Shown here piece by piece: positions 4,315 through 62,762 of a DNA stretch of 64,000 nucleotides (the stretch's first letter is position 1; the number at the start of each line of letters is the position of its first letter). The notes beneath the pieces were generated by a model, which did not search any database, was not told the DNA's origin, and saw only the letters and a program-made list of their open reading frames with translations. The translations under genes and the position numbers were made by a program. The DNA comes from a virus. Lineage: Duplodnaviria > Caudoviricetes. The DNA lies in the IMG/VR virus record IMGVR_UViG_2706795719_000001, positions 97,990 to 161,989 of that record, one strand, 5' to 3'.

Positions 4315-4878
4315 TTAAAAAAGCCAATCTAAACTAGGATCTGTATATCCTATCATTTCTTTAAATTCTTCCATTATCATAAAATTATTTAAATTATAGG
4401 TTTTAATCCCTAATGATCTAGCTAAATAAACAGCTGTTCTTGTACCACCAGAAACATTTCCAAATTTATCTTCAGGTGCCCAAAAAATAACGCTATCTAC
4501 AGGGTCTTCTAATGTAGGGCTTAATATTTGCATGCAATTTCGACATTGCAGATGTTTAACTGTTTTAGAACATGAATCTAATTTTGGATAGAACCTTCTT
4601 ATTATATTAGCACTTTTGTCTTGTAATTCTTTATTAAAATCTGTAAATACATGAATACCAGGTTCTTTATAGTGGTTATTAAATCCAAGGTGAGGAATAA
4701 TAATACATCTTAAATCATGACTATATTCCTTCATAAAATTGTAATCACTCCCAGGCGCACCTCCTGACAATCCTAGGACACCTTGATCTGATATGTATTT
4801 TCCACCCTTTATTAAAATATTATATAATTTAGTAGGAATTTCTCTTGACCCTATTAAAGCAACAGAATTTTTAATCAT
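4315..4878 (-). CDS. SLOG/DprA-like Rossmann-fold nucleotide-binding protein
   Basis: VALIGSR, SGGAPGSD, RNCMQIL, SGGTRTAVYLARSLGIKTYNL motifs. Confidence 0.75.
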   Translation of the reverse strand: MIKNSVALIGSREIPTKLYNILIKGGKYISDQGVLGLSGGAPGSDYNFMKEYSHDLRCIIIPHLGFNNHYKEPGIHVFTDFNKELQDKSANIIRRFYPKLDSCSKTVKHLQCRNCMQILSPTLEDPVDSVIFWAPEDKFGNVSGGTRTAVYLARSLGIKTYNLNNFMIMEEFKEMIGYTDPSLDWLF

Positions 4879-9182: not shown

Positions 9183-9211
9183 AAAAATGGGACCTTACGG
9201 TCCCATTTTTT
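9183..9211. terminator. bidirectional terminator between 8821 ORF and gene 54
   Basis: aaaaatgggacc-ttac-ggtcccattttt. Confidence 0.85.
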
Positions 9212-11167: not shown

Positions 11168-12879
11168 TAATTAACCTCTAGTGCTTTATACATGCCAGGA
11201 GCAGCATATCCTGTTACAGGAGTTTGTTGAATAACAGTTTTATTATTTGCAACATTATTTTGGACATTAGCAGTGTTTGTTGTAGATTGGATAGTAGATT
11301 CTGATGTTTGAATATTATTAATATTTTCAGCACTAGTATAATCTTGGGATTCTTTAGGGTCTTCAGGCTTAATATTAGGGATTTGTTCTAACAATAAGTC
11401 AGATTTATCTAAGGCCTCTATTCCAAGTTTATAATAATCCGAATCAACTTCTACACTTTGATTATCTATAATTGAGCTTGCTAATTCTCTGAGTTCCCTA
11501 GCTATTTTAGACAAATTTTCCGGGCTATTTCTTTGAGCTTCAGCCATAGCTATAAGATTATTTAATCTTGCTTCTGTCTTTACTTGTTCTTCTATATTAC
11601 TAGCTTCAGGATTGTTTTGATTAGTTTCTTTAATTGCAGTATCAGCCTGTTCTTGGGTTATAATTCCACCTTCAACAAATTTGGCTGCTTCTTCTTCAAC
11701 TGTAGTTCCAAACATTCTAGCTTTGGCTTTAACAACTCTTGTCCATCCAGAATCTTCTTCTTGGGATGTATTTCTAACATCATTTCCACGAACTTTGGCC
11801 ATTAATTTTAATTCATCATCTGTTGGCATATACCCGGTATTTTTATTATAAGCCTCTATCGCGGCAACTTCTAATTCATCTGCCCAAGTATCTTGTCCCA
11901 TAGCTCGGAGTAAAGATGATAATAATTTACCTAATGCAAATTGTATACCTTGCAATAAATTTTCCAAAACATTTACAAGGCCTTTAACTATTGCTAATGT
12001 TAAATTACCAAAATCACCTTCTTTCCAGAATTTTTTGACATCTTCTAATGTTGCAAAAATTGATCTCAATATTGGTGCTAATGGCCCAAGTTTTTCTTCA
12101 AAATCATCAAAAGCTTCATTAAACAATTTACCCCAGTATTTAAAATGGATCATTATCAAATCCATTGCTAATACAACAGCTAACATTATAGCGGCCCATT
12201 TAGCAGCAAATAAAGCAGCACTTACTGTGTATTTAAATAACATATCTGCTATTCTATTTGTCATACCATACGCAGATTTAAACCCGGTTTTGACATTTTT
12301 ATTCAAAGTCCCAAGAATTTTACTTAAAGAATCTTTTTCTTTATTGTCCTTTTTGGGTTCTTTATTTTTCTTTTCTTCTTCAGGTTTAGGTATTCTATCA
12401 ATATCTTCTTTATTAATAATTAAATCTTTAATAGCAGACTCTAGCTTAGAATCTTCAACTGGGACTGGAAGTTTAGAAAATGCTTCTTCTGTTTCAGATA
12501 CTTCAGGCTCTATAACTTCTTGTTTTTCTGGTTTAAATTTCTCTTTTAATAAATTACTTAATTTAGAGATATTAGAAGAAAATGTATCTGATAATTTAGA
12601 TGTTGAAGACGATAAATCCTTTAAACTGTTATTAGTTTCTTGGTTAGAATCTATTAATAATTCAACACCAGCTTGGACATCTTGGACAGAAGAATTTATT
12701 TTAGTCGAGGTGCTTTCTATTGTCTCTGCTACAAGTTCAATACCACTAGATAAATCTGTCAAAGAATCAGAGACAGACCCCATTGAATTAGCAACATTTT
12801 CTTGTCCTTTAGCCTCTTTAGATATTTTGTTTTTTTCTTCTATAACTTTAGTTCTTCTAAATGAATCAGGTGTTTTCAT
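11167..12879 (-). CDS. 29: baseplate hub / tape-measure protein gp29
   Basis: helical, LFKYTVSAAL..AK, position. Confidence 0.9.
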   Translation of the reverse strand: MKTPDSFRRTKVIEEKNKISKEAKGQENVANSMGSVSDSLTDLSSGIELVAETIESTSTKINSSVQDVQAGVELLIDSNQETNNSLKDLSSSTSKLSDTFSSNISKLSNLLKEKFKPEKQEVIEPEVSETEEAFSKLPVPVEDSKLESAIKDLIINKEDIDRIPKPEEEKKNKEPKKDNKEKDSLSKILGTLNKNVKTGFKSAYGMTNRIADMLFKYTVSAALFAAKWAAIMLAVVLAMDLIMIHFKYWGKLFNEAFDDFEEKLGPLAPILRSIFATLEDVKKFWKEGDFGNLTLAIVKGLVNVLENLLQGIQFALGKLLSSLLRAMGQDTWADELEVAAIEAYNKNTGYMPTDDELKLMAKVRGNDVRNTSQEEDSGWTRVVKAKARMFGTTVEEEAAKFVEGGIITQEQADTAIKETNQNNPEASNIEEQVKTEARLNNLIAMAEAQRNSPENLSKIARELRELASSIIDNQSVEVDSDYYKLGIEALDKSDLLLEQIPNIKPEDPKESQDYTSAENINNIQTSESTIQSTTNTANVQNNVANNKTVIQQTPVTGYAAPGMYKALEVN

Positions 12880-15291: not shown

Positions 15292-15873
15292 TTTGAAATA
15301 ACATGCAATGATTTAATATATAAAGCCAGATATTTCACCCTGGATGAATACGAGGCAACTCTTCTCAAAATAACTGATAATAATATTAAAGAAGCTATAA
15401 CTAAGCTCTTAATTGATTGTGTGGATTCCTATGATACAAATTTACCTAAACACTACGCAGAATGTATTTTTCTTAAACTATGGGCTCATAGTTTAGGTGG
15501 AGTGACAAAAGACTTAAATGGTGTTTTTGTCAATTTTAATTATATAGAATCTCCAGCAGAAAAAGGCTTTATCTATAAAATAGAAAATTTAAGCTTAAAA
15601 ATGAGGTATCCAAAATTATTTGAAGATTCTGATAAGCTGGAAATGGTTATTAATTGTATTGATTCTGTAATATTAGAAAATGAAACGGAAATAAAGATAC
15701 AAGACCTTTCATCAGAAGATATAGAAGCTTTATATTCGCTTTTAACAAAAGACTCTATTATTGCATTAAGAGATGAATTGCTTAGACCAAAACCATATAT
15801 TGCTTTTCCACTTGATGGAGAAATACATAAAATAGAAGGGTTTAAAAACTTATTAGAGGTGATAGATGAGTAA
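15289..15873 (+). CDS. 26: baseplate hub subunit gp26
   Basis: FTLDEY, LWAHSLG, MRYPKLFED; divergent from 51. Confidence 0.85.
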   Translation: MFEITCNDLIYKARYFTLDEYEATLLKITDNNIKEAITKLLIDCVDSYDTNLPKHYAECIFLKLWAHSLGGVTKDLNGVFVNFNYIESPAEKGFIYKIENLSLKMRYPKLFEDSDKLEMVINCIDSVILENETEIKIQDLSSEDIEALYSLLTKDSIIALRDELLRPKPYIAFPLDGEIHKIEGFKNLLEVIDE

Positions 15874-16252
15874 AATGAATGTTTTATACTCTGACTTGGA
15901 CCCTAAAATGGAAAAAGGCTGGGATAAAGATCTACATAAAGTTGTAGGAGATAGAGCTGTTAAAAATTCTATTCTTGGGATAATTAGTACAAGAAAAGGG
16001 TCTAGACCCTTTGATCCAGAATTTGGGTGTAACATAACAGATCAGTTATTTGAAAATATGAGCCCATTAATAGAAGATACTATAGAACGATCTATTGTGT
16101 CTGCTATAAAAAATTATGAACCAAGGGTTCAACGTTTAAAAGTCTCTGTTACTACATTATATGATTCTAATTCTATCATAGTGGATATAATTTTTTCTAT
16201 AGTAGATAATCCAGATACATTAGAACAAATAAAAGTTCAATTATCTAAATAA
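15866..16252 (+). CDS. 25: baseplate wedge subunit gp25
   Basis: YSDLDP, STRKGSRPFDPEFGC, NYEPR. Confidence 0.95.
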   Translation: MSKMNVLYSDLDPKMEKGWDKDLHKVVGDRAVKNSILGIISTRKGSRPFDPEFGCNITDQLFENMSPLIEDTIERSIVSAIKNYEPRVQRLKVSVTTLYDSNSIIVDIIFSIVDNPDTLEQIKVQLSK

Positions 16253-16446
16253 TTTACTATAGTTATTAATTTATTACTTAATAGTTATATAGAATATACT
16301 ATACTTTTAATAAAATAATAAACTAAGGAAACTATTTTCTGGAGCGCAGCTCCAGATTTTAATAACACAGAGTTATTAATTTATTACTTAATAGTTATAT
16401 AGAATATACTATACTTTTAATAAATTAGTTTACTATAGTTATTAAT
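16253..16446. repeat. AT-rich 66-bp-unit repeat array, locus A, with GCA-triloop hairpin at 16338-16356
   Basis: identical 54-bp blocks at 16261 and 16371, partial third copy; 60 bp identical to 52294-52353. Confidence 0.95.
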
Positions 16447-16495
16447 AATAGGCTATTATTATAATTTGTATATAATGTATCTTTATGGAGGAATT

Positions 16496-16906
16496 ATGAA
16501 TTTAGAAGAATTACAAACAATGTTATCAGAAGACCTAAAAATAGATTCGTTAAAACTTCAATATGAAGCTGCCAATAACCCATCATTATATGGTAAATGG
16601 TTAAAAATTTATTCTGATATAAAGAAAGGAATTATTTCTTATGAGGCTAATAAGAAAAGATTACTAAAACAACGATTAGACCATTATACAGGCCGTGGCG
16701 ATGAAGTATGTATGGATTTATATGAAAAATCTGAACTAAAAACTGTTATTGCGGCTGACCCAGAAATATTAAAAACCCAAACATCAGTTGAATATAGAAA
16801 TCTTTTATTAGATTTTGCATCCAAAGCTTTAGATGCAATAAAGGCTCGTGGGTTTAGTATTAAACATATTCTTGAATGTAGACAATTTGAGGCAGGTACA
16901 AAATGA
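16496..16906 (+). CDS. uvsY: recombination mediator UvsY
   Basis: DLKID..KLQYEA, DHYTGRGD, EKSELKTV, RGFSIKHI; GGAGG SD. Confidence 0.95.
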   Translation: MNLEELQTMLSEDLKIDSLKLQYEAANNPSLYGKWLKIYSDIKKGIISYEANKKRLLKQRLDHYTGRGDEVCMDLYEKSELKTVIAADPEILKTQTSVEYRNLLLDFASKALDAIKARGFSIKHILECRQFEAGTK

Positions 16907-28066: not shown

Positions 28067-28093
28067 AATATATCCTTTAAATTAATTTTGGCT

Positions 28094-28166
28094 ATACTAC
28101 ACTAATTTTTAGTACTTGTAAACACTTATTTTCAATAAAATCAAAAAAGGAGACCGAAGTCTCCTT
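28094..28166 (-). repeat. terminator + early-promoter cassette, copy 1
   Basis: gtaaacacttattttcaataaaa..caaaaaaggagaccgaagtctcctt. Confidence 0.9.
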
Positions 28167-28177
28167 AAAATTATTTT

Positions 28178-28414: not shown

Positions 28415-28442
28415 TTTAGACCTCCATTATTAATTGTGATCT

Positions 28443-28515
28443 ATAATATCCTTTTTTAAAAGAGAAGTAAATACTTATTTTCAATAAAAACAAAAAAGGA
28501 GACCGAAGTCTCCTT
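28443..28515 (-). repeat. terminator + early-promoter cassette, copy 2
   Basis: gtaaatacttattttcaataaaaacaaaaaaggagaccgaagtctcctt. Confidence 0.9.
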
Positions 28516-28519
28516 AAAT

Positions 28520-28654
28520 TTATTTCTTGTTACCAAGGTTAGCTAAAAACTTAGCTCGGCCATTTTCTTGTCGTTTAACAAATCCAACCAATTTATCTAA
28601 GTCTTGGTTAATGCGTTTATTCGTTTTTCGTTTGTAACCTTTACGTGCAGACAT
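28520..28654 (-). CDS. 30.9: gp30.9-like basic protein (44 aa, not in ORF track)
   Basis: MSARKGYKRKTNKRINQ matches the GYKR..N.RINQ motif; downstream of rIII. Confidence 0.75.
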   Translation of the reverse strand: MSARKGYKRKTNKRINQDLDKLVGFVKRQENGRAKFLANLGNKK

Positions 28655-38340: not shown

Positions 38341-40519
38341 TTGTATTGTGGTAATACATTGTTTTTCCACCTAATGACCAGAAATATAACATATCATCCA
38401 TGATTACGCTCATTGGTACCTTAGATTTTTCATAAATACTTGGGGTGTAATAAGTATTAACAGAAATACTTTGGTCTACAAACTTCTGCATAATAGCAGC
38501 TTGAGTTAAATAACCTTTCATTCCGCGTTTACTTAGGTCCCAGGCATAATCATAAAGATCTTCATTAAACTCAATATTAGGAACAACTTGATTAAACGAC
38601 CCGTCTTTAGAAGCTTTTGCCGTCACAGATTTTCTTGGTGGCTCAATACCATTTGTGCTATTAGAAACTTGAGAAGATGATTCACAAGGCATTAATGCAG
38701 ATAAAGTACTGTTTCTGATACCGTATTGCTTAAGGTCTTTACGTAAAGATTCCCAATCACAAACATATTCTGGTTTAACTACTTTATCAAGGTTTTTATT
38801 ATACCAATCAATGGGTAATAAGCCTTGAGAATATTTAGTTTCATGATAAAGCTCACAAGGTCCTTTTTCTTTTGCTAAATCAACAGAGGCCTTAATTAAT
38901 CCATACTGTAAACGTTCAAATAACTCATGAGTAAACTGTTGAGCATTATCATAATTTAAAAACTGCGAAGCTAAAGAAGCAGCATAATTAGTTACACCAA
39001 CACCTAATGCACGGCGTTTTTTAGCAATCAATGCTTTTTCTACAGGATAATCTTGATAATCTAATAAAGCATCCAATGCTCTAACAGCCACACGTGCAAT
39101 TTTATTAATTTGTTCTTGGTCTTGATAATCAAATGAATCAAGTACAAATGCTGATAGAGTGCAAAGTGCTATTTCCCCATCATCTTTACTAATATCACTC
39201 GTGGGTAATGTAATCTCTGCGCATAAATTGCTTAATCTAATAGGAGACGTTTCTCTAATAAATGAACTTTGTCTATTAACATTATCAACAAAGAATGGAT
39301 AAATTCTTGCTGTATTAGCACGCTCTGTTAATAAAATAGAAAATACTTCAGATGCCTTGATTCGTTTTTTACGAATAGAAGTATCTTTTTCTGCGGCTTC
39401 GTATAAATCACGGAATTTCTGTTCGTTACTAAAATAAGCATCATACATACCAGGGATTTCATGTGGACTAAACAATGTAATATAATCATCATTAATTAGT
39501 CGTTCAATCATAAGGTCATTAATTTGAACACCATAATCTAAATGACGAATACGGTTTTCTTCAATACCTTTATTATTTTTAAGAACTAACAATTTTTCTA
39601 ATTCAAGGTGCCACATTGGGTAATATAAAGTAGCAGAACCACCTCGAATCCCACCTTGGGAACATGATTTTACAGATGCCAAATGGGTTTTCCAAAATGG
39701 AATGACACCGGTATGGACAACTTCGCCAAATCCTATTTTAGACCCTTCAGCCCTATACATACCGGCATTAATACCAATACCAGCTCTTTTAGAAATGTAT
39801 TTTACAATAGCTGCATTTGTTTCATTAATAGAATCTAAAGAATCACCGCTATCAATAACTACGCAAGAACTAAATTGACGTGTTGGGGTTCTTACACCAG
39901 ACAAAATTGGTGTTGGTAAAGACAATTGCTTATCTGATACAACTTCATAGAATTCAATTACCTTTTCTAGTCTGTTTTCAACTTCTTCTTGGAATAAACA
40001 CATTCCAATAAGCATAAACGCATATTGAGGTGTTTCGTAAATAATTCCTGTTGAACGGTCTTTAACCATATATTTAGAAATAAGCTGCATAGTACCTGCA
40101 TATGTAAACTTAAAATCTTTGTCATGGACAATGTATTTTTCTAATTCAGAAATTTCTTGGGCTGTATATTTAGAAAGAATTTCTGAATCATATAATCCTA
40201 AATTCACATTACGAGAGATTAATTCAATAAATGGGATAGGATTAGATTGGCCATATACTTTTTTACGTAAAGCAATATGTTCTAAATTTGATGCAACATA
40301 TTGATAATCTGGTGTTTCTTTTGTTATATTAGATGCTGCAACTTTGATAATTGTTCTCTGGATTTGCTCTGTGGTCATGTTATCAATAAACATAGGCCTA
40401 GCAATTTCCATCACTTCATATGGGTCTACTGATGTATTTCTACATGCAATTTCTAGAACATTAATAATTTTAGATTCGTCAAAATCTTGAGTTACACCCG
40501 ATGATTTAATTACTTTCAT
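38282..40519 (-). CDS. nrdA: class Ia ribonucleotide reductase alpha subunit
   Basis: ATP cone, RQFSSCV, SNLCAEI, C-terminal CESCKL. Confidence 0.98.
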   Translation of the reverse strand: MKVIKSSGVTQDFDESKIINVLEIACRNTSVDPYEVMEIARPMFIDNMTTEQIQRTIIKVAASNITKETPDYQYVASNLEHIALRKKVYGQSNPIPFIELISRNVNLGLYDSEILSKYTAQEISELEKYIVHDKDFKFTYAGTMQLISKYMVKDRSTGIIYETPQYAFMLIGMCLFQEEVENRLEKVIEFYEVVSDKQLSLPTPILSGVRTPTRQFSSCVVIDSGDSLDSINETNAAIVKYISKRAGIGINAGMYRAEGSKIGFGEVVHTGVIPFWKTHLASVKSCSQGGIRGGSATLYYPMWHLELEKLLVLKNNKGIEENRIRHLDYGVQINDLMIERLINDDYITLFSPHEIPGMYDAYFSNEQKFRDLYEAAEKDTSIRKKRIKASEVFSILLTERANTARIYPFFVDNVNRQSSFIRETSPIRLSNLCAEITLPTSDISKDDGEIALCTLSAFVLDSFDYQDQEQINKIARVAVRALDALLDYQDYPVEKALIAKKRRALGVGVTNYAASLASQFLNYDNAQQFTHELFERLQYGLIKASVDLAKEKGPCELYHETKYSQGLLPIDWYNKNLDKVVKPEYVCDWESLRKDLKQYGIRNSTLSALMPCESSSQVSNSTNGIEPPRKSVTAKASKDGSFNQVVPNIEFNEDLYDYAWDLSKRGMKGYLTQAAIMQKFVDQSISVNTYYTPSIYEKSKVPMSVIMDDMLYFWSLGGKTMYYHNTNDGNNQDESKDSDCESCKL

Positions 40520-44371: not shown

Positions 44372-44442
44372 ATAGTATCATGATAAAAATCTTTGTAAAT
44401 ATTTTTTCACTAAAACAAAAAAGGAACCCGTAGGTTCCTTTT
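44372..44442 (-). promoter_or_regulatory. gene 32 terminator followed by early promoter for frd
   Basis: aaaaggaacc hairpin; ATTTAC-17 nt-TACTAT. Confidence 0.7.
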
Positions 44443-50500: not shown

Positions 50501-51177
50501 CATTTATTTCTGGACAAGGCACTATTAATGTAGGTGATTCAGAATCTCAAATTAGATTCCAGACTAAAAATCCTAATGATGTAAGAATTTCTGGTTCTAC
50601 TATTATTGTTAATACTAATTTAGAAGAAAAAGGTAATAAACACTTTATTAATCGTAAACAAGATACCGTTGACGGAGACATTGAATTTACTAAACCAATA
50701 AAAATTAATGTCCCGGAAAACATGGTTGAAGTTTCAGAAGGTATATTTGTTGCTAAAATTACTTCTAAAGAAGAATATGAAAAATATCCAGGTATAGCAG
50801 TTCCTAAAATAGACCAAGAAACTCAAAAAGTTATTGATTACACTTATGTTAAAGGGCCTGGTACGTTAACTCAGTATGGTGATACAAAATCATACACATA
50901 CAGAATCTGGGCCCCACAAGCTTTAGGACAGGAAGATAATCATAATAACTATTCTTTATGGATGCAGGTTTATAACCCAGTTAAAGGTGAATTTGATGCA
51001 TGGGGTAGAATTTATACTTCGCAAAATCCACCTACTGCTGCAGAAATAGGAGCTGTTTCTTCATCTGGTTCTACTTTTGAAACACTTAAAGTTAATCAAT
51101 GGTTACAAGTTGGACCTGTAAGAATGGTTCCGGACCCAGTAACTAAAACTGTAAGGTATATATGGATCGATGAGTAA
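47521..51177 (+). CDS. 34: long tail fibre proximal subunit gp34
   Basis: GLDA..EKVINV, repeated ATE.R.G...IATQ.E...TPKKL motifs. Confidence 0.95.
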   Translation: MTLNKSLKATYGLDASNEKVINVGLADKKTLTDGVNVEFLIQENTIQAYDKNRGYEKGFAVIFENRIYVSNQNIESPAGDFEPHKWFSLRVDPKWETIFETVSSGQIITSGQFIAANTSINDLYFKLPRKPQPGDTVCIKEVSGNSGYKYLKIGKTDNSIIWNGTDVEELYLTRPYSQTYFIFSGNVWNVFQIEHEDIGRIISTSPIKQQVSAGERLYRLSSTGEINIMLPKYAMHGDVIEMFDVDGLTSINHLTIFVSEGSGHAIGTLGQTKYEVRTIGNGRLVFDGSNNLWRLWDGDIRTRLKTIKEDHKLLPNEQILVYGANNTVKETITLTLPRNIAVGDTVEISLGYMRKGQTVVIKTDGDDIIGTDKNLLQFPKRSQYPPEMAWVEVKELSFNGTDDYLPYLKFAYVETLSKLGWAVQHYRPNVERVDFKNPERIGLIALATQNQANIDHENNPEKELAITPFTLANRVATEERRGIAKTAKTSMVNQNSNGKFEDDTIVTPKKLNERTATEERRGLAEIATQEETNTGKDDTTIVSPLKLENRKASETLSGIAKIVPSKGAPGTQRDKPGTGVYNYTDNKTIVSPSAIHELLSTENSHGVVYLASETEVIEAPDMDPKFPVAVTPVQLHKKTATENRIGFSQIATQEETDLGQDNFKFITPKKLNDRKSSETLEGISRYATYEEFKKGDLNLISEPGKIKQFLQEARITTVPESGIVFTGNIWDTCNFDIKASSEVDRGTLKLSTQDQTNTGEDDTTAITPKKLQNKKSTEQVEGIIQLSTYAETIAGEVNNKAISPQNFVLAVQTEDNGLQASTSLRGFVRLLDGASVWQGTDETGSDPENEDFLHDGYAVSPRELNKALSHYLPIKGKAVNSTLFDDLKTSDFVRRNIDQEIDGVMTFNKPVILKDTLVSTSSGKFESLESKTVSIGDGTIGSISFLSTTPWKIDVQDDFKINNVKIDKDEVIHSKGLETVSYIDTSEYRLNGKTFISGQGTINVGDSESQIRFQTKNPNDVRISGSTIIVNTNLEEKGNKHFINRKQDTVDGDIEFTKPIKINVPENMVEVSEGIFVAKITSKEEYEKYPGIAVPKIDQETQKVIDYTYVKGPGTLTQYGDTKSYTYRIWAPQALGQEDNHNNYSLWMQVYNPVKGEFDAWGRIYTSQNPPTAAEIGAVSSSGSTFETLKVNQWLQVGPVRMVPDPVTKTVRYIWIDE

Positions 51178-52288
51178 TATAATGGTTGAATTCGGCCAAG
51201 ATTATGTGGGTGCTCAAACGTTCTCAGAGAACAATGCTCTCACATATAAGTTAACTATAAGGGCCAGTAATAAAAACACACAGGGTGAATCCTGTGTGTT
51301 AATTAATGATAAAAAAATATCAGATCAATGTCAAAAAGGATTTAATGTTTGGGTTATAGATAATAAAGGTAATTTATTCAACAAAATGATTTTTGATTTT
51401 ACAGAAGAATCTGGAAGAAATGCCTTTATTGATTTCATGAAATCCCAGGATAAAAATATAATTTGTATTAGTTCTTCTGATGAATTATTTTCTTCGGAAG
51501 AACTCACAAAATATATGAAAAGTATAGGGTCTGCTTCATGGAATGATTTTTTAATTAAAAAGATTAAAACCGTTTCTTATGCATGTGTATATAGAACAGA
51601 TATAAAGCAAATAGTACTGGAATCTATTCAGTATTCAGATGGTATAAAAGAAGATAATGTTTTAGAATTAGAAACTATTTTTGATTCTGAGTATTCTTTA
51701 GGGATAACTGGATTTCCGGGTTCTATAGTCTATGATCATAAAGAATATACATCAGTTGAAAATGACTACAAAAAATGGCCCACTAGTTTGTTGAATAATA
51801 AATTATCTGATTATGGTCTTAAGCCAGGTGATTGGGTTTCTTTAAGTGCATCTATATTTGGCGATAAAGAACTTAAAGACGAAGGTGGTTGGACAAGGAT
51901 AGATTGTAGATGGGTTCTTGGCAATACATGGAAACAATCATTTTATCTTGAGAGCACACTAAAAGGAAATTACCCAGTCCAATCTATGGTTAATCCAGAT
52001 ATATGGGAATCTAAAACTGTTTATTCTCAGATTCCAGAAGGTGTAGATGGATTTGTCATTATAGCTTCTAGATATAATTCTGAGCTAGGACATTCTGCTG
52101 TAAAAAACGTGGCATTTGGTAAATCAGCAGAACCTATAATAGAAGAATCTGATCGACAAATAGGGATAAATGGTATCAGAAATTCATTTATAAAAGAGGA
52201 AGAACAAAAAGTAGGTTCATTATTAAGTTTATTAAATCTTAAGGACAAATCAGATACAATTTCTTCTATAAACTTTAAAGAAATCTAA
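51170..52288 (+). CDS. 35: long tail fibre hinge connector gp35
   Basis: EFGQ.YV....SENN start; size and position. Confidence 0.9.
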   Translation: MSNIMVEFGQDYVGAQTFSENNALTYKLTIRASNKNTQGESCVLINDKKISDQCQKGFNVWVIDNKGNLFNKMIFDFTEESGRNAFIDFMKSQDKNIICISSSDELFSSEELTKYMKSIGSASWNDFLIKKIKTVSYACVYRTDIKQIVLESIQYSDGIKEDNVLELETIFDSEYSLGITGFPGSIVYDHKEYTSVENDYKKWPTSLLNNKLSDYGLKPGDWVSLSASIFGDKELKDEGGWTRIDCRWVLGNTWKQSFYLESTLKGNYPVQSMVNPDIWESKTVYSQIPEGVDGFVIIASRYNSELGHSAVKNVAFGKSAEPIIEESDRQIGINGIRNSFIKEEEQKVGSLLSLLNLKDKSDTISSINFKEI

Positions 52289-52293
52289 TAACG

Positions 52294-52439
52294 TATAGTT
52301 ATTAATTTATTACTTAATAGTTATATAGAATATACTATACTTTTAATAAAATAGTTTACTATAGTTATTAATTTATTACTTAATAGTTATATATATATAA
52401 TATAAAGAACTTAATAAATTCTGGGAGCGAAGCTCCCAG
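52294..52439. repeat. AT-rich 66-bp-unit repeat array, locus B, with GAA-triloop hairpin at 52421-52439
   Basis: tandem copies at 52297 and 52363; 75/76 identical to 16371-16446. Confidence 0.95.
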
Positions 52440-52461
52440 TTTTCTTTAGAAAAGGCTCTTT

Positions 52462-52469
52462 TATAAATA
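52462..52469 (+). promoter_or_regulatory. late promoter for gene 36
   Basis: TATAAATA; leader aataaagaaaggag shared with gene 34. Confidence 0.8.
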
Positions 52470-52489: not shown

Positions 52490-52957
52490 ATGGCAGACCT
52501 TAAAAGAGGAAGTACTGCTGGAGGAGAATTAATCCTTACACAAGGAAATTTTCCATTAATACCAGTTGGTAATTCTTTATATTTTAACAAGCATAAAGTC
52601 TACACTGAATATGATAAGCCTACAGCAGAAGAAGTTGATTCTGTTTCGGCTTCTAAAGGTGGAGAATTTAAAGAAAGAGTAATTTTTAAAGAAATACAAG
52701 TTAATGGTAAAACAACTCCATTAACAATTAAAGAAGGGTTAGAAACAGATAGTGAAATAACTATAGGAACATTAGATATTAAATCAGGTGATAAATCTGT
52801 TTTATTGATTGATCCTTCTAATCCTGAATTACTTCAAACAGATTCTATAAAAACTAATAAAACCGTGCTAACATCCCCAGGAACAGAAGCTAATCATGCT
52901 GTTAGATATGACCAAGTTGTGTTGGTAGGTGATGTTATTGACTTTGGAGAATTCTAA
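52490..52957 (+). CDS. 36: long tail fibre distal connector gp36
   Basis: MADLK.GST.GG, QGNFPL, IDFG.F. Confidence 0.9.
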   Translation: MADLKRGSTAGGELILTQGNFPLIPVGNSLYFNKHKVYTEYDKPTAEEVDSVSASKGGEFKERVIFKEIQVNGKTTPLTIKEGLETDSEITIGTLDIKSGDKSVLLIDPSNPELLQTDSIKTNKTVLTSPGTEANHAVRYDQVVLVGDVIDFGEF

Positions 52958-59081: not shown

Positions 59082-59156
59082 ATAATACTATACTTAAAAA
59101 GCTTTGTAAACACTTATTTTCAATAAAATGCAAAAAAAGGAGACCGAAGTCTCCTT
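59082..59156 (-). repeat. terminator + early-promoter cassette, copy 3 (motA promoter)
   Basis: gtaaacacttattttcaataaaatgcaaaaaaaggagaccgaagtctcctt. Confidence 0.9.
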
Positions 59157-62114: not shown

Positions 62115-62713
62115 ACTTTAAAACAAAAATTTTTATCTCTTTTAATTCTTCCGGTTAAATAGTAGCCGTCGAATTTAGATTTACGAATACTACCATTCTT
62201 TGTAGATAAAGCGTATTGGTCTGCTAAAATATAAGGAATCATCCTAAATGTGTTCAGGGCAATCTTTTCTGTTTTGAATATAATTATAATATCTGCCACA
62301 CCAAATTTCAAGAACGGCCCCAGGTTTATCCCTGATGTACCTGGACAATCTCCATCTATACCAGAGTTTACTGTAACCCATTTAGAATTTGATTGATGTG
62401 TTTTAACTTCTATTCTTAATCCAGAGTATTTTGGGTGAGCTATAACATCATAAGCATATGTGTATGGGTCTTCAAGATCTTCTTGTCCATGATTAATAAT
62501 ACCATCTACATGTTCTTTGACATATTCTTCTGCCATAATAGCAATCATACATTTCTCAAAGCATTCTGGTATAGTTTGATTTGGGTTAGATTCCAACGAA
62601 TACTTTGTTGTTGAACGTATTTTTTCTTTAGTATCTTCACTCATATCTCTTAAAGACATTACTTTAGGCTTTAATTCTGACAATCTTTTCCACCCAGGAT
62701 TTGTTTCTAACAT
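62093..62713 (-). CDS. denB: endonuclease IV DenB
   Basis: TNPG..RL, DPYTYAYDV.AHP.Y.GLRIEVKTHQS.SKW. Confidence 0.93.
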   Translation of the reverse strand: MLETNPGWKRLSELKPKVMSLRDMSEDTKEKIRSTTKYSLESNPNQTIPECFEKCMIAIMAEEYVKEHVDGIINHGQEDLEDPYTYAYDVIAHPKYSGLRIEVKTHQSNSKWVTVNSGIDGDCPGTSGINLGPFLKFGVADIIIIFKTEKIALNTFRMIPYILADQYALSTKNGSIRKSKFDGYYLTGRIKRDKNFCFKVFTSKDF

Positions 62714-62724
62714 ATTACCTCTCA

Positions 62725-62749
62725 ACAAAAAAAGGGACCGAAGTCCCTT
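62725..62749 (-). terminator. rIIB terminator (UUCG)
   Basis: minus strand agggac-ttcg-gtcccttttttt. Confidence 0.85.
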
Positions 62750-62762
62750 AACTTATTTAAAT

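Follow-up and report, generated by a model that had tools for sequence, protein, structure and literature searches.

A T4-type middle promoter has the MotA box (a/t)(a/t)(a/t)TGCTT(t/c)A centred at -30 and TAnnnT at -10, and the T4 late promoter, TATAAATA, sits ~6 nt upstream of the transcription start. Replication origins have been experimentally defined only for T4, and conservation of the T4 origin sequences does not extend to its relatives (PMC3016281). No motif is common to these origins; most are found in late-gene regions, and their positions are also those of recombination hot spots. Two of them, oriF and oriG, combine a middle promoter with an A+T-rich unwinding element (Kreuzer and Brister review, PMC3016281). 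Some of the other T4-like phages, RB49 among them, lack MotA. A described intergenic module is the PeSL (promoter-early stem-loop) of RB49/phi1 and other T4-like phages, a composite promoter/stem-loop unit (PMC2839356, PMC4122927). The sequence considered here is in a 64-kb stretch (the window; positions 97990–161989 of the 161,989-bp phage record IMGVR_UViG_2706795719_000001; G+C 31%) and lies between gene 25 and uvsY (locus A). It belongs to a cassette, composed of a conserved box, an AT-rich spacer and a GC palindrome, that is present at four gene junctions in this genome and at the same junctions in several genera. Sequence comparison argues that the box-spacer-palindrome is a real, self-contained cis-acting DNA element, and the four cassettes are tentatively interpreted as putative replication origins.

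Around locus A the nucleotide sequence is 98.4% identical to that of Proteus phage PM2 (Straboviridae, Bragavirus), and the same region is 83–85% identical in Proteus phages SJ_PmiM and phiP4-3 and Shigella phage vB_SdyM_006. Genes at the junctions were named from lists of open reading frames (ORFs) and the PM2 annotation. Coordinates refer to the window except those marked G000, which refer to the whole record. Four cassette loci, well separated around the genome, and none beyond these are present in the whole genome: between a 473-aa XPD/DinG-like helicase ORF and gene 55 (late sigma factor), between gene 2 (DNA end protector) and gene 3 (tail completion), between gene 25 and uvsY, and between gene 35 and gene 36 (locus B). 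The helicase-55 and 2-3 loci are outside the window, at G000 38455–38573 and G000 70016–70213, respectively, both on the minus strand. Each of the four is intergenic and has the same direction as the genes beside it, and a whole-genome pattern search gave no occurrence of the box or of halves of the unit elsewhere in the 162 kb. The full repeats span 16253–16461 at locus A and 52286–52440 at locus B, and their exact repeats of 54–87 bp are far above chance expectation. A preliminary description of locus A had recognized the recurrence at locus B, where positions 52286–52393 are 95–100% identical to locus A (repeat finder, families D1 and D3), but it counted two loci where the genome has four.

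Comparison across genera defines a conserved core in three parts. (i) The box is 27 bp long, has an A+T content of 85–90% and conforms to the consensus TTATTAyTTAA-NN-yTTATAwAkArwA, also given as TTATTACTTAA-NN-yTTATATAkAAtAt; it includes a -10-like core, TATAGAAT or TATATAAT, with TAGAAT or TATAAT in every copy. (ii) The spacer is A+T-rich, 17–40 bp long and usually contains TAATAAA. (iii) The palindrome is perfect and GC-rich, with a stem of 6–10 bp and almost always a 3-nt loop. There is one box-to-hairpin pairing per locus. Relatives were compared by pattern searches in single genomes in place of BLAST; a BLAST search of the unit against the phage collection returned PM2 alone, though near-identical copies exist in relatives, and a low-complexity filter is the probable cause. 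The box is present at the same four junctions in PM2, SJ_PmiM, SdyM_006, phiP4-3, Morganella phage MP1 (Gualtarvirus), Providencia phage PSTCR6, Serratia phage 4S, Cronobacter phage VP8 (Muldoonvirus) and Erwinia phage IT22 (Roskildevirus). The 21-bp stretch TTATTACTTAATAGTTATATA shows one substitution among ~40 Bragavirus copies. The whole intergenic regions are 81–91% identical to those of other Bragavirus genomes as compared with 81–92% for the coding flanks; conservation of the whole intergenic region above that of the flanks was not found in these genomes, and the box alone is essentially invariant. A pattern scan of IMG/VR for the motif gave only the MP1 and phiP4-3 records, together with single chance hits. 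The proposal that locus A contains a conserved non-coding cis element is thus upheld both by its recurrence within the genome and by its presence at the same four junctions in several genera.

At locus A, the first box copy (TTATTACTTAATAGTTATATAGAATAT; 16271–16297), which is the cross-genus conserved part, lies within the 66-bp unit 16253–16317. This copy is followed by an AT-rich spacer at 16298–16337 that contains TAATAAA and, in addition, repeats the leader of gene 3 including the ribosome-binding site (AATAAACTAAGGAAACTAT); the identical string precedes the gene 3 ATG at G000 70k. A perfect GC palindrome, TCTGGAGC-GCA-GCTCCAGA, followed by TTTT, occupies 16338–16356 (hairpin search and comparison). 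A second box copy is at 16381–16407 and a partial third copy, which comprises only the 5' part of the unit (GTTTACTATAGTTATTAAT), is at 16429–16447; both were identified by reading of the sequence and by the repeat finder. At locus B, the first box copy is at 52307–52333 (repeat finder and sequence reading), the second, a variant with TATATATATAAT and then AAAGAACTTAATAA, is at 52373–52399 (sequence reading), and the palindrome CTGGGAGC-GAA-GCTCCCAG, followed by TTTTCTTT, is at 52421–52439; comparison of the hairpins places the inverted loop, TTC, at this position in PM2. All of these features are on the plus strand of the window.

The sequence reading and the repeat finder agree with the preliminary description with respect to the identical 54-bp blocks at 16261 and 16371, which are 110 bp apart, the partial third copy 66 bp past the second and the GC hairpin in the middle of the array. 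Its interpretation of the array as iterons fares less well. The TACT sequences at 16255, 16275 and 16297 are present, but the 20–24-bp subrepeats that they lead are weak and degenerate; they are absent in MP1, 4S, VP8 and IT22, and other genera carry a single box per unit. Since neither these subrepeats nor the 66-bp tandem period is conserved beyond Bragavirus and PSTCR6, the iteron part of the earlier model falls. A single box-hairpin unit per locus is found in 4S and VP8, and at most loci in IT22, and tandem copies with spacings of 66 and 110 bp are found only in Bragavirus, MP1 and PSTCR6, which indicates that the tandem copies are lineage-specific expansions.

The 3' half of the box has two variants, v1 (GAATATACTATACTTTT) and v2 (TAATATA(TA)AAGAACTT), and their distribution among the loci differs from phage to phage. 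The v1/v2 swaps between loci, together with the copy of the gene 3 leader at locus A, indicate that the cassette copies exchange sequence by gene conversion. In Serratia phage 4S, the entire unit at the 25-uvsY junction lies in the opposite orientation and the hairpin still comes after the box, which argues that the cassette works independently of its neighbours. Local duplications involve the 3' end of gene 25 and part of the cassette in phiP4-3 (L015 2445–2520), and the 3' end of gene 2 and part of the cassette in IT22 (73547–73900), and the cassettes are therefore hot spots of duplication or recombination. A miniature inverted-repeat transposable element (MITE) or other mobile element was considered and is ruled out by the fixed location of the four positions across genera.

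Duplex stability was calculated from nearest-neighbour energies for genome-wide windows of 60, 100, 150 and 200 bp. The four cassettes are the four least stable windows at 100, 150 and 200 bp (z 3.9–5.1, with a fifth site at ~3.0–3.1), and in the 60-bp analysis the six lowest-stability windows all lie in them (z 3.7–4.3, the next being 3.3). An A+T-rich unwinding element of the oriF/oriG type is accordingly a feature of all four loci, and the unwinding-element character attributed earlier to locus A is matched by the cassettes being the least stable duplex sites of the genome.

In the T4 record, the origins are annotated at 16763 (oriA), 79355 (oriE, in gene 5), 115321 (oriF, the start of uvsY) and 152947 (oriG, in gene 34). 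The cassette at the 25-uvsY junction lies at the oriF position, as had been proposed; for the cassettes at the 35-36 and 2-3 junctions, the distances are 2.9 kb to the oriG position and 3.4 kb to the oriE position, respectively. The cassettes resemble oriF and oriG in that one of them lies at the oriF junction, a -10-like element is followed by very AT-rich DNA, several dispersed sites lie in or beside late-gene clusters, and the sites are prone to recombination and duplication. They are unlike them in lacking TGCTT at -30 and in always having a perfect GC palindrome; moreover, there is no common motif among the T4 origins, whereas one sequence is reused at four loci here, and the other three cassettes are off the T4 origin positions. 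With oriE and the iterons of plasmids they share direct repeats, non-coding AT-rich DNA and an origin-like position, and a helicase-like gene is beside one copy. However, oriE has clustered, evenly spaced 12-nt repeats, whereas the subrepeats here are degenerate and not conserved, and most relatives have one unit per locus.

The best single explanation appears to be that the four cassettes are putative replication origins, promoter-like and analogous to T4 oriF, because this accounts for the occurrence of the unit in either orientation, the small fixed number of sites and the combination of AT-rich and palindromic sequence; we put its probability at roughly 0.4. Transcription or the binding of a factor at the box would open the very AT-rich DNA, and a short transcript or R-loop could then prime leading-strand synthesis. 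The palindrome might bound the opened region, either through pausing or termination of the transcript or through extrusion of a hairpin.

Several observations weigh against an origin function. The gene 55 locus has no counterpart among the annotated T4 origins, and the spacer is only ~20 bp in the phages with single units, which is short for an unwinding element. The box-bearing clade offers ~40 locus-by-phage instances, and with a single exception their orientation is that of the genes on either side; the box also sits right against the ribosome-binding site of gene 3. A plain promoter would look the same. There is no MotA box in or next to the unit: TGCTT is lacking, and a genome scan with TGCTT[TC]A-N11-13-TAnnnT misses the cassettes. 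No -35 element is recognizable, and a sigma-70 scan, which gave 9 sites as compared with 8.3 expected, is hence uninformative. A switch in GC/AT skew is absent at the two cassettes located inside long co-directional gene runs; this result is uninformative for T4-like phages and gives no support for an origin. Finally, phyletic profiling for a DNA-binding protein restricted to the box-bearing clade returned only rI, RpbA and an unknown 146-aa protein, and the cognate initiator envisaged in the preliminary description found no match in a gene specific to the element-bearing clade.

A special transcription-control cassette with no role in replication is nearly as likely, because the box abuts gene 3 and is co-directional in nearly all of the box-bearing phages. 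The box would then serve as a factor-dependent or hybrid promoter, or as an operator, controlling gene 3 (together with gene 1 downstream of it) and genes 55, uvsY and 36; the hairpin would act as a terminator, an attenuator or an RNA-stabilizing stem. The likeness between copies would be kept by gene conversion, which is described for PeSLs and is shown here by the v1/v2 swaps between loci. The -10-like TAGAAT/TATAAT core in every copy and the co-directional arrangement at all four loci of this phage are consistent with such a role. In Bragavirus, PSTCR6, VP8 and IT22, the box precedes the ATG of gene 3 by 15–45 nt and a ribosome-binding site is present, and no other promoter was found between the box or hairpin and gene 3 in these phages; likewise, none was found for gene 36 in MP1 and PSTCR6. 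The gene 36 copies of MP1 read TATAAATT, one base off the late consensus, and some copies in MP1 and PSTCR6 approach it (TATAAATT, TATAAAAA). A T-run follows the hairpin at three of the four loci here, including 16338–16365 and 52421–52447 but not the gene 55 locus. The PeSLs (PMC2839356, PMC4122927) provide a precedent for composite promoter/stem-loop units in T4-like phages, and the cassettes are like them in being short intergenic modules, with a promoter-like part and a GC stem-loop, that are repeated and homogenized or shuffled by recombination. The PeSLs, however, carry a consensus sigma-70 early promoter, number in the dozens and are located beside ORFans of hyperplastic regions, whereas the cassette has no -35 element, the box precedes the hairpin and the sites are four fixed core-gene junctions.

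Against this transcriptional role, the box is outside the known promoter classes of the phage (early, late and MotA-type), and only four loci carry it. The early promoters here are T4-like (GTTTACA-17 bp-TAtTAT) and usually follow a UUCG-type terminator in a PeSL-like arrangement. The late promoter TATAAATA has 30 copies in the genome, all outside the box, one of them downstream of the locus B hairpin; identity of the box with a late promoter was rejected, the core being TATAGAAT/TATATAAT and not TATAAATA. T4-type MotA promoters are few in the genome, and PM2 encodes MotA and AsiA. The -30 position relative to TAGAAT reads, by eye, TAATTTATTA, which is not a MotA box, and a MotA-like TACTT variant was discarded, since it matches only the cassettes and random sites. 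As stated in the preliminary description, TATAAT at 16471 has no MotA box, there being no TGCTT upstream. Inspection by eye for sigma-E, sigma-S, sigma-28 and sigma-54 promoters, IHF sites and DnaA boxes gave no convincing cross-genus match in the box. Downstream of the hairpin, separate promoters serve genes 55, uvsY and 36, and a terminator-like hairpin would limit a transcript from the box to 40–65 nt. The box is missing from more than 40 other boundaries of the terminator type in the genome, and the T-run is missing from most of the hairpins in MP1, PSTCR6, 4S and VP8. The unit is inverted in 4S, and analogous repeats, described below, are inverted in Aes508, RB43, LPCS28 and Acinetobacter phage 133. 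The origin and transcription interpretations are, on this analysis, not exclusive, because the T4 uvsY promoter is also an origin.

The hairpins give further information on the cassettes. The 38 hairpins compared, from 10 phages, have 17 different stems, all perfectly paired (full compensation). Their loops include GCA (9) and its complement TGC (5), GAA (3) and TTC (2), AAA (3) and TTT (3), and GTA (3) and TAC (1). In three of the four cassette hairpins, the loop in this phage is the reverse complement of that in PM2. In contrast, among 36 other hairpins comparable between these two phages, 29 are unchanged, six have point changes and one is flipped, which corresponds to an enrichment of loop flips at the cassettes with a Fisher p of ~0.002 (hand arithmetic). 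The sole flipped hairpin outside the cassettes, at 9183–9210 (G000 107172–107199), has TTAC versus GTAA and a terminator-like structure with a 12-bp stem. Either loop inversion is unusually frequent at the cassette palindromes, or it is only there free of strand-specific selection. Both interpretations argue against a loop-specific RNA function and fit a structure formed by DNA or a stem that requires pairing only; the flips also fit frequent hairpin extrusion or template switching at the cassettes. The cassette hairpins are like intrinsic terminators in having a GC stem and, at three of the four loci here, a T-run. They are unlike them in that their loops invert freely, whereas ordinary ones keep their loops (29 the same, 1 flipped), and in that the cassette hairpin is always coupled to the conserved box, with the T-run mostly lacking in MP1, PSTCR6, 4S and VP8.

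The frequent inversion of loops, the perfect palindromes in extremely AT-rich surroundings, the local duplications and the exchange between loci would also be explained by a programmed recombination or break site, in which the palindrome is extruded and cut by gp49 or gp46/47, seeding recombination-dependent replication or local gene conversion. An XPD/DinG-like helicase gene adjoins one cassette, and this helicase and a DprA-like protein, which might take part, are in all nine non-T4 genomes and absent from T4. We nonetheless consider such a break site improbable: it leaves the strict conservation of the 27-bp box and its -10-like core unexplained, Acinetobacter 133, KP15 and Aeromonas 65 are exceptions to the link with the helicase, and stems of 6–10 bp are short for cruciform extrusion.

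A small RNA or 3'-untranslated region RNA element has similarly little likelihood. In such an element, the box would remain single-stranded and functional within a short RNA terminating at the hairpin, and this RNA would target host or phage mRNAs or bind an RNA-binding protein. In its favour, a conserved linear segment with a compensating variable stem is typical of small-RNA families, the unit is always just past a stop codon, and an AU-rich segment, hairpin and U-run occur together in Bragavirus. Against it, the loops occur in both orientations (~13 of 38 in the complement form), the U-run is lacking after most non-Bragavirus hairpins, the inverted 4S unit would not be transcribed from the same upstream gene and a box of 85–90% A+T would be unstructured. 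There is also no Rfam match: Rfam 15 gave nothing at the gathering score in the whole window, and within 16150–16560 at E<=1 the best was JA04, with 24 bits as compared with a gathering score of 81. No tRNA or tmRNA was found.

More distant T4-like phages were examined by within-genome comparison of the 330 bp upstream of genes 55, 3, uvsY and 36 in whole genomes. In T4, a segment shared among these four upstream regions was not found. RB49 has 99 bp (96% identity) common to the gene 3 and gene 36 regions; Aes508 has 63–104 bp common to genes 3, 36 and, inverted, 55; LPCS28 has 43–53 bp common to 55, uvsY and 36, with the repeats partly inverted; and RB43 has 55–65 bp common to 55, uvsY and 3, also partly inverted. 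The 27-bp box is absent from RB49, RB43, Aes508 and LPCS28, and their repeats are unrelated to it in sequence. In RB49, Aes508 and LPCS28, the repeats comprise inverted-repeat arms and an AT-rich core (TTTAGAATAATA in RB49 and TATAAGAAATA in LPCS28), after which come one or two GC hairpins, a number of them with triloops (GCGAAGC, GCAAAGC and GCGTAGC); the GC hairpins of RB43 are of the CGCTTCGC type. The presence of lineage-specific repeats at the same junctions indicates that positions are conserved while the sequence turns over between lineages.

In a wider set of genomes, the pattern is broader but not uniform. Acinetobacter phage 133 has a 62-bp inverted repeat common to the gene 3 and uvsY regions. 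Klebsiella phage KP15 has, upstream of 55, 3 and uvsY (L245–L253), arrays of 4–5 T(T/A)AGATC(A/T) sequences, each with GATC, in very AT-rich DNA, and these arrays may be another lineage-specific version of the system. In Aeromonas phage 65, a repeat shared among these upstream regions was not found. The sole piece shared in RB69 and T4 is an antisense MotA-type promoter in the 2-3 gap; in T4 (AATGCTTTA-N13-TATAAT; L100 2956–3061, ~75986, plus strand), its -10/+1 region matches that of the uvsY/oriF promoter at 20 of 22 positions. The sequence GGTATAATGrrTCTAAGTCC was considered as a marker of T4 origins and rejected: it occurs at 11883, 53339, 75986 and 115385, but oriA is annotated at 16763, and it therefore represents an ordinary subclass of middle promoters. 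As a generalization, many non-T-even T4-like phages might use two to four sequence-defined replicators at fixed junctions (helicase-55, 2-3, 25-uvsY and 35-36), each with an inverted-repeat-flanked AT-rich core, a -10-like motif and triloop GC palindromes; the sequence would turn over at fixed positions, T4 oriF would be a T-even derivative, and the helicase and DprA-like protein may act at these sites. We regard this wider scheme as doubtful.

The 473-aa ORF (G000 38567–39988, minus strand; L003:1585-3006:-) is between genes 55.2 and 55, directly upstream of the gene 55 cassette. Its sequence contains Walker A and DE motifs and is matched weakly by Pfam DEAD, and its AlphaFold model (mean pLDDT 89) matches 3crw with an E of 2e-10 and DinG with an E of 1e-9 to 5e-9; an XPD/DinG-type SF2 helicase fold is predicted with high confidence. 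The helicase is present in ~239 phage records from the RB49, RB43, Aeromonas, Cronobacter, Serratia and Proteus groups, including phages without the box, and is absent from T4, RB69, KP15 and Acinetobacter 133. A 187-aa DprA-like protein is encoded at 4315–4878 on the minus strand (phrog_768; weak Pfam DNA_processg_A match). In the first comparison set, these two were the only proteins of the phage found in 9/9 non-T4 genomes yet missing from T4, and their genes are adjacent in Aes508. A strict co-occurrence of helicase and cassette was rejected, as Acinetobacter 133 and KP15 have repeats without the helicase and Aeromonas 65 has the helicase without a shared repeat; the association of the helicase and DprA-like protein with the cassettes is suggestive, not strict.

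As a short, sequence-defined element at four syntenic sites in at least six lineages, with analogous lineage-specific repeats at two or three of these junctions in more distant phages, the cassette provides concrete, clonable origin candidates. If the cassettes are instead a new class of promoter or insulator, they would be a fourth kind of regulatory signal beside the T4-type early, middle and late promoters, and would explain the duplication hot spot beside the tail-fibre and recombination genes. The affected phages are under development against Proteus, Morganella, Providencia and Serratia. A description of the motif was not found in the searchable literature, including the MP1, five T4-like genomes and PeSL papers, coverage of which is incomplete, so that an earlier description is possible.

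The genes that flank the two loci in the window are on the plus strand and were identified from the ORF list and the PM2 annotation, which for gene 25 is that of a 98%-identical region. Upstream of locus A is gene 25 (baseplate wedge; 15866–16252), and downstream is uvsY (16497–16906); the gap between the end of gene 25 at 16252 and the uvsY ATG at 16497 is 244 bp, in agreement with the PM2 annotation. Locus B is preceded by gene 35 (long tail fibre proximal connector; 51170–52288) and followed by gene 36 (tail fibre hinge connector; 52490–52957), for which a scan for late promoters identified a canonical T4-type TATAAATA at 52462–52469, downstream of the cassette. The segment 16444–16476, also on the plus strand and conserved in Bragavirus, contains the AATAATAGGCTATTATT palindrome and TATAAT hexamers at 16460–16465 and 16471–16476 and is likely, from its sequence, to be the uvsY promoter region. 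The palindrome itself, AATAATAG-G-CTATTATT at 16444–16460, had been noted at the end of the array in the preliminary description and was recovered here; it is located just upstream of the uvsY -10 hexamers, is kept in five of five Bragavirus genomes and may be a uvsY operator. PeSL-like cassettes with a UUCG-type terminator hairpin, an AT-rich tract and GTTTACA-17-TAtTAT are present in the window at 28092–28176, 28441–28525, 44403–44440, 59082–59156 and 62713–62750 and form a separate repeat family.

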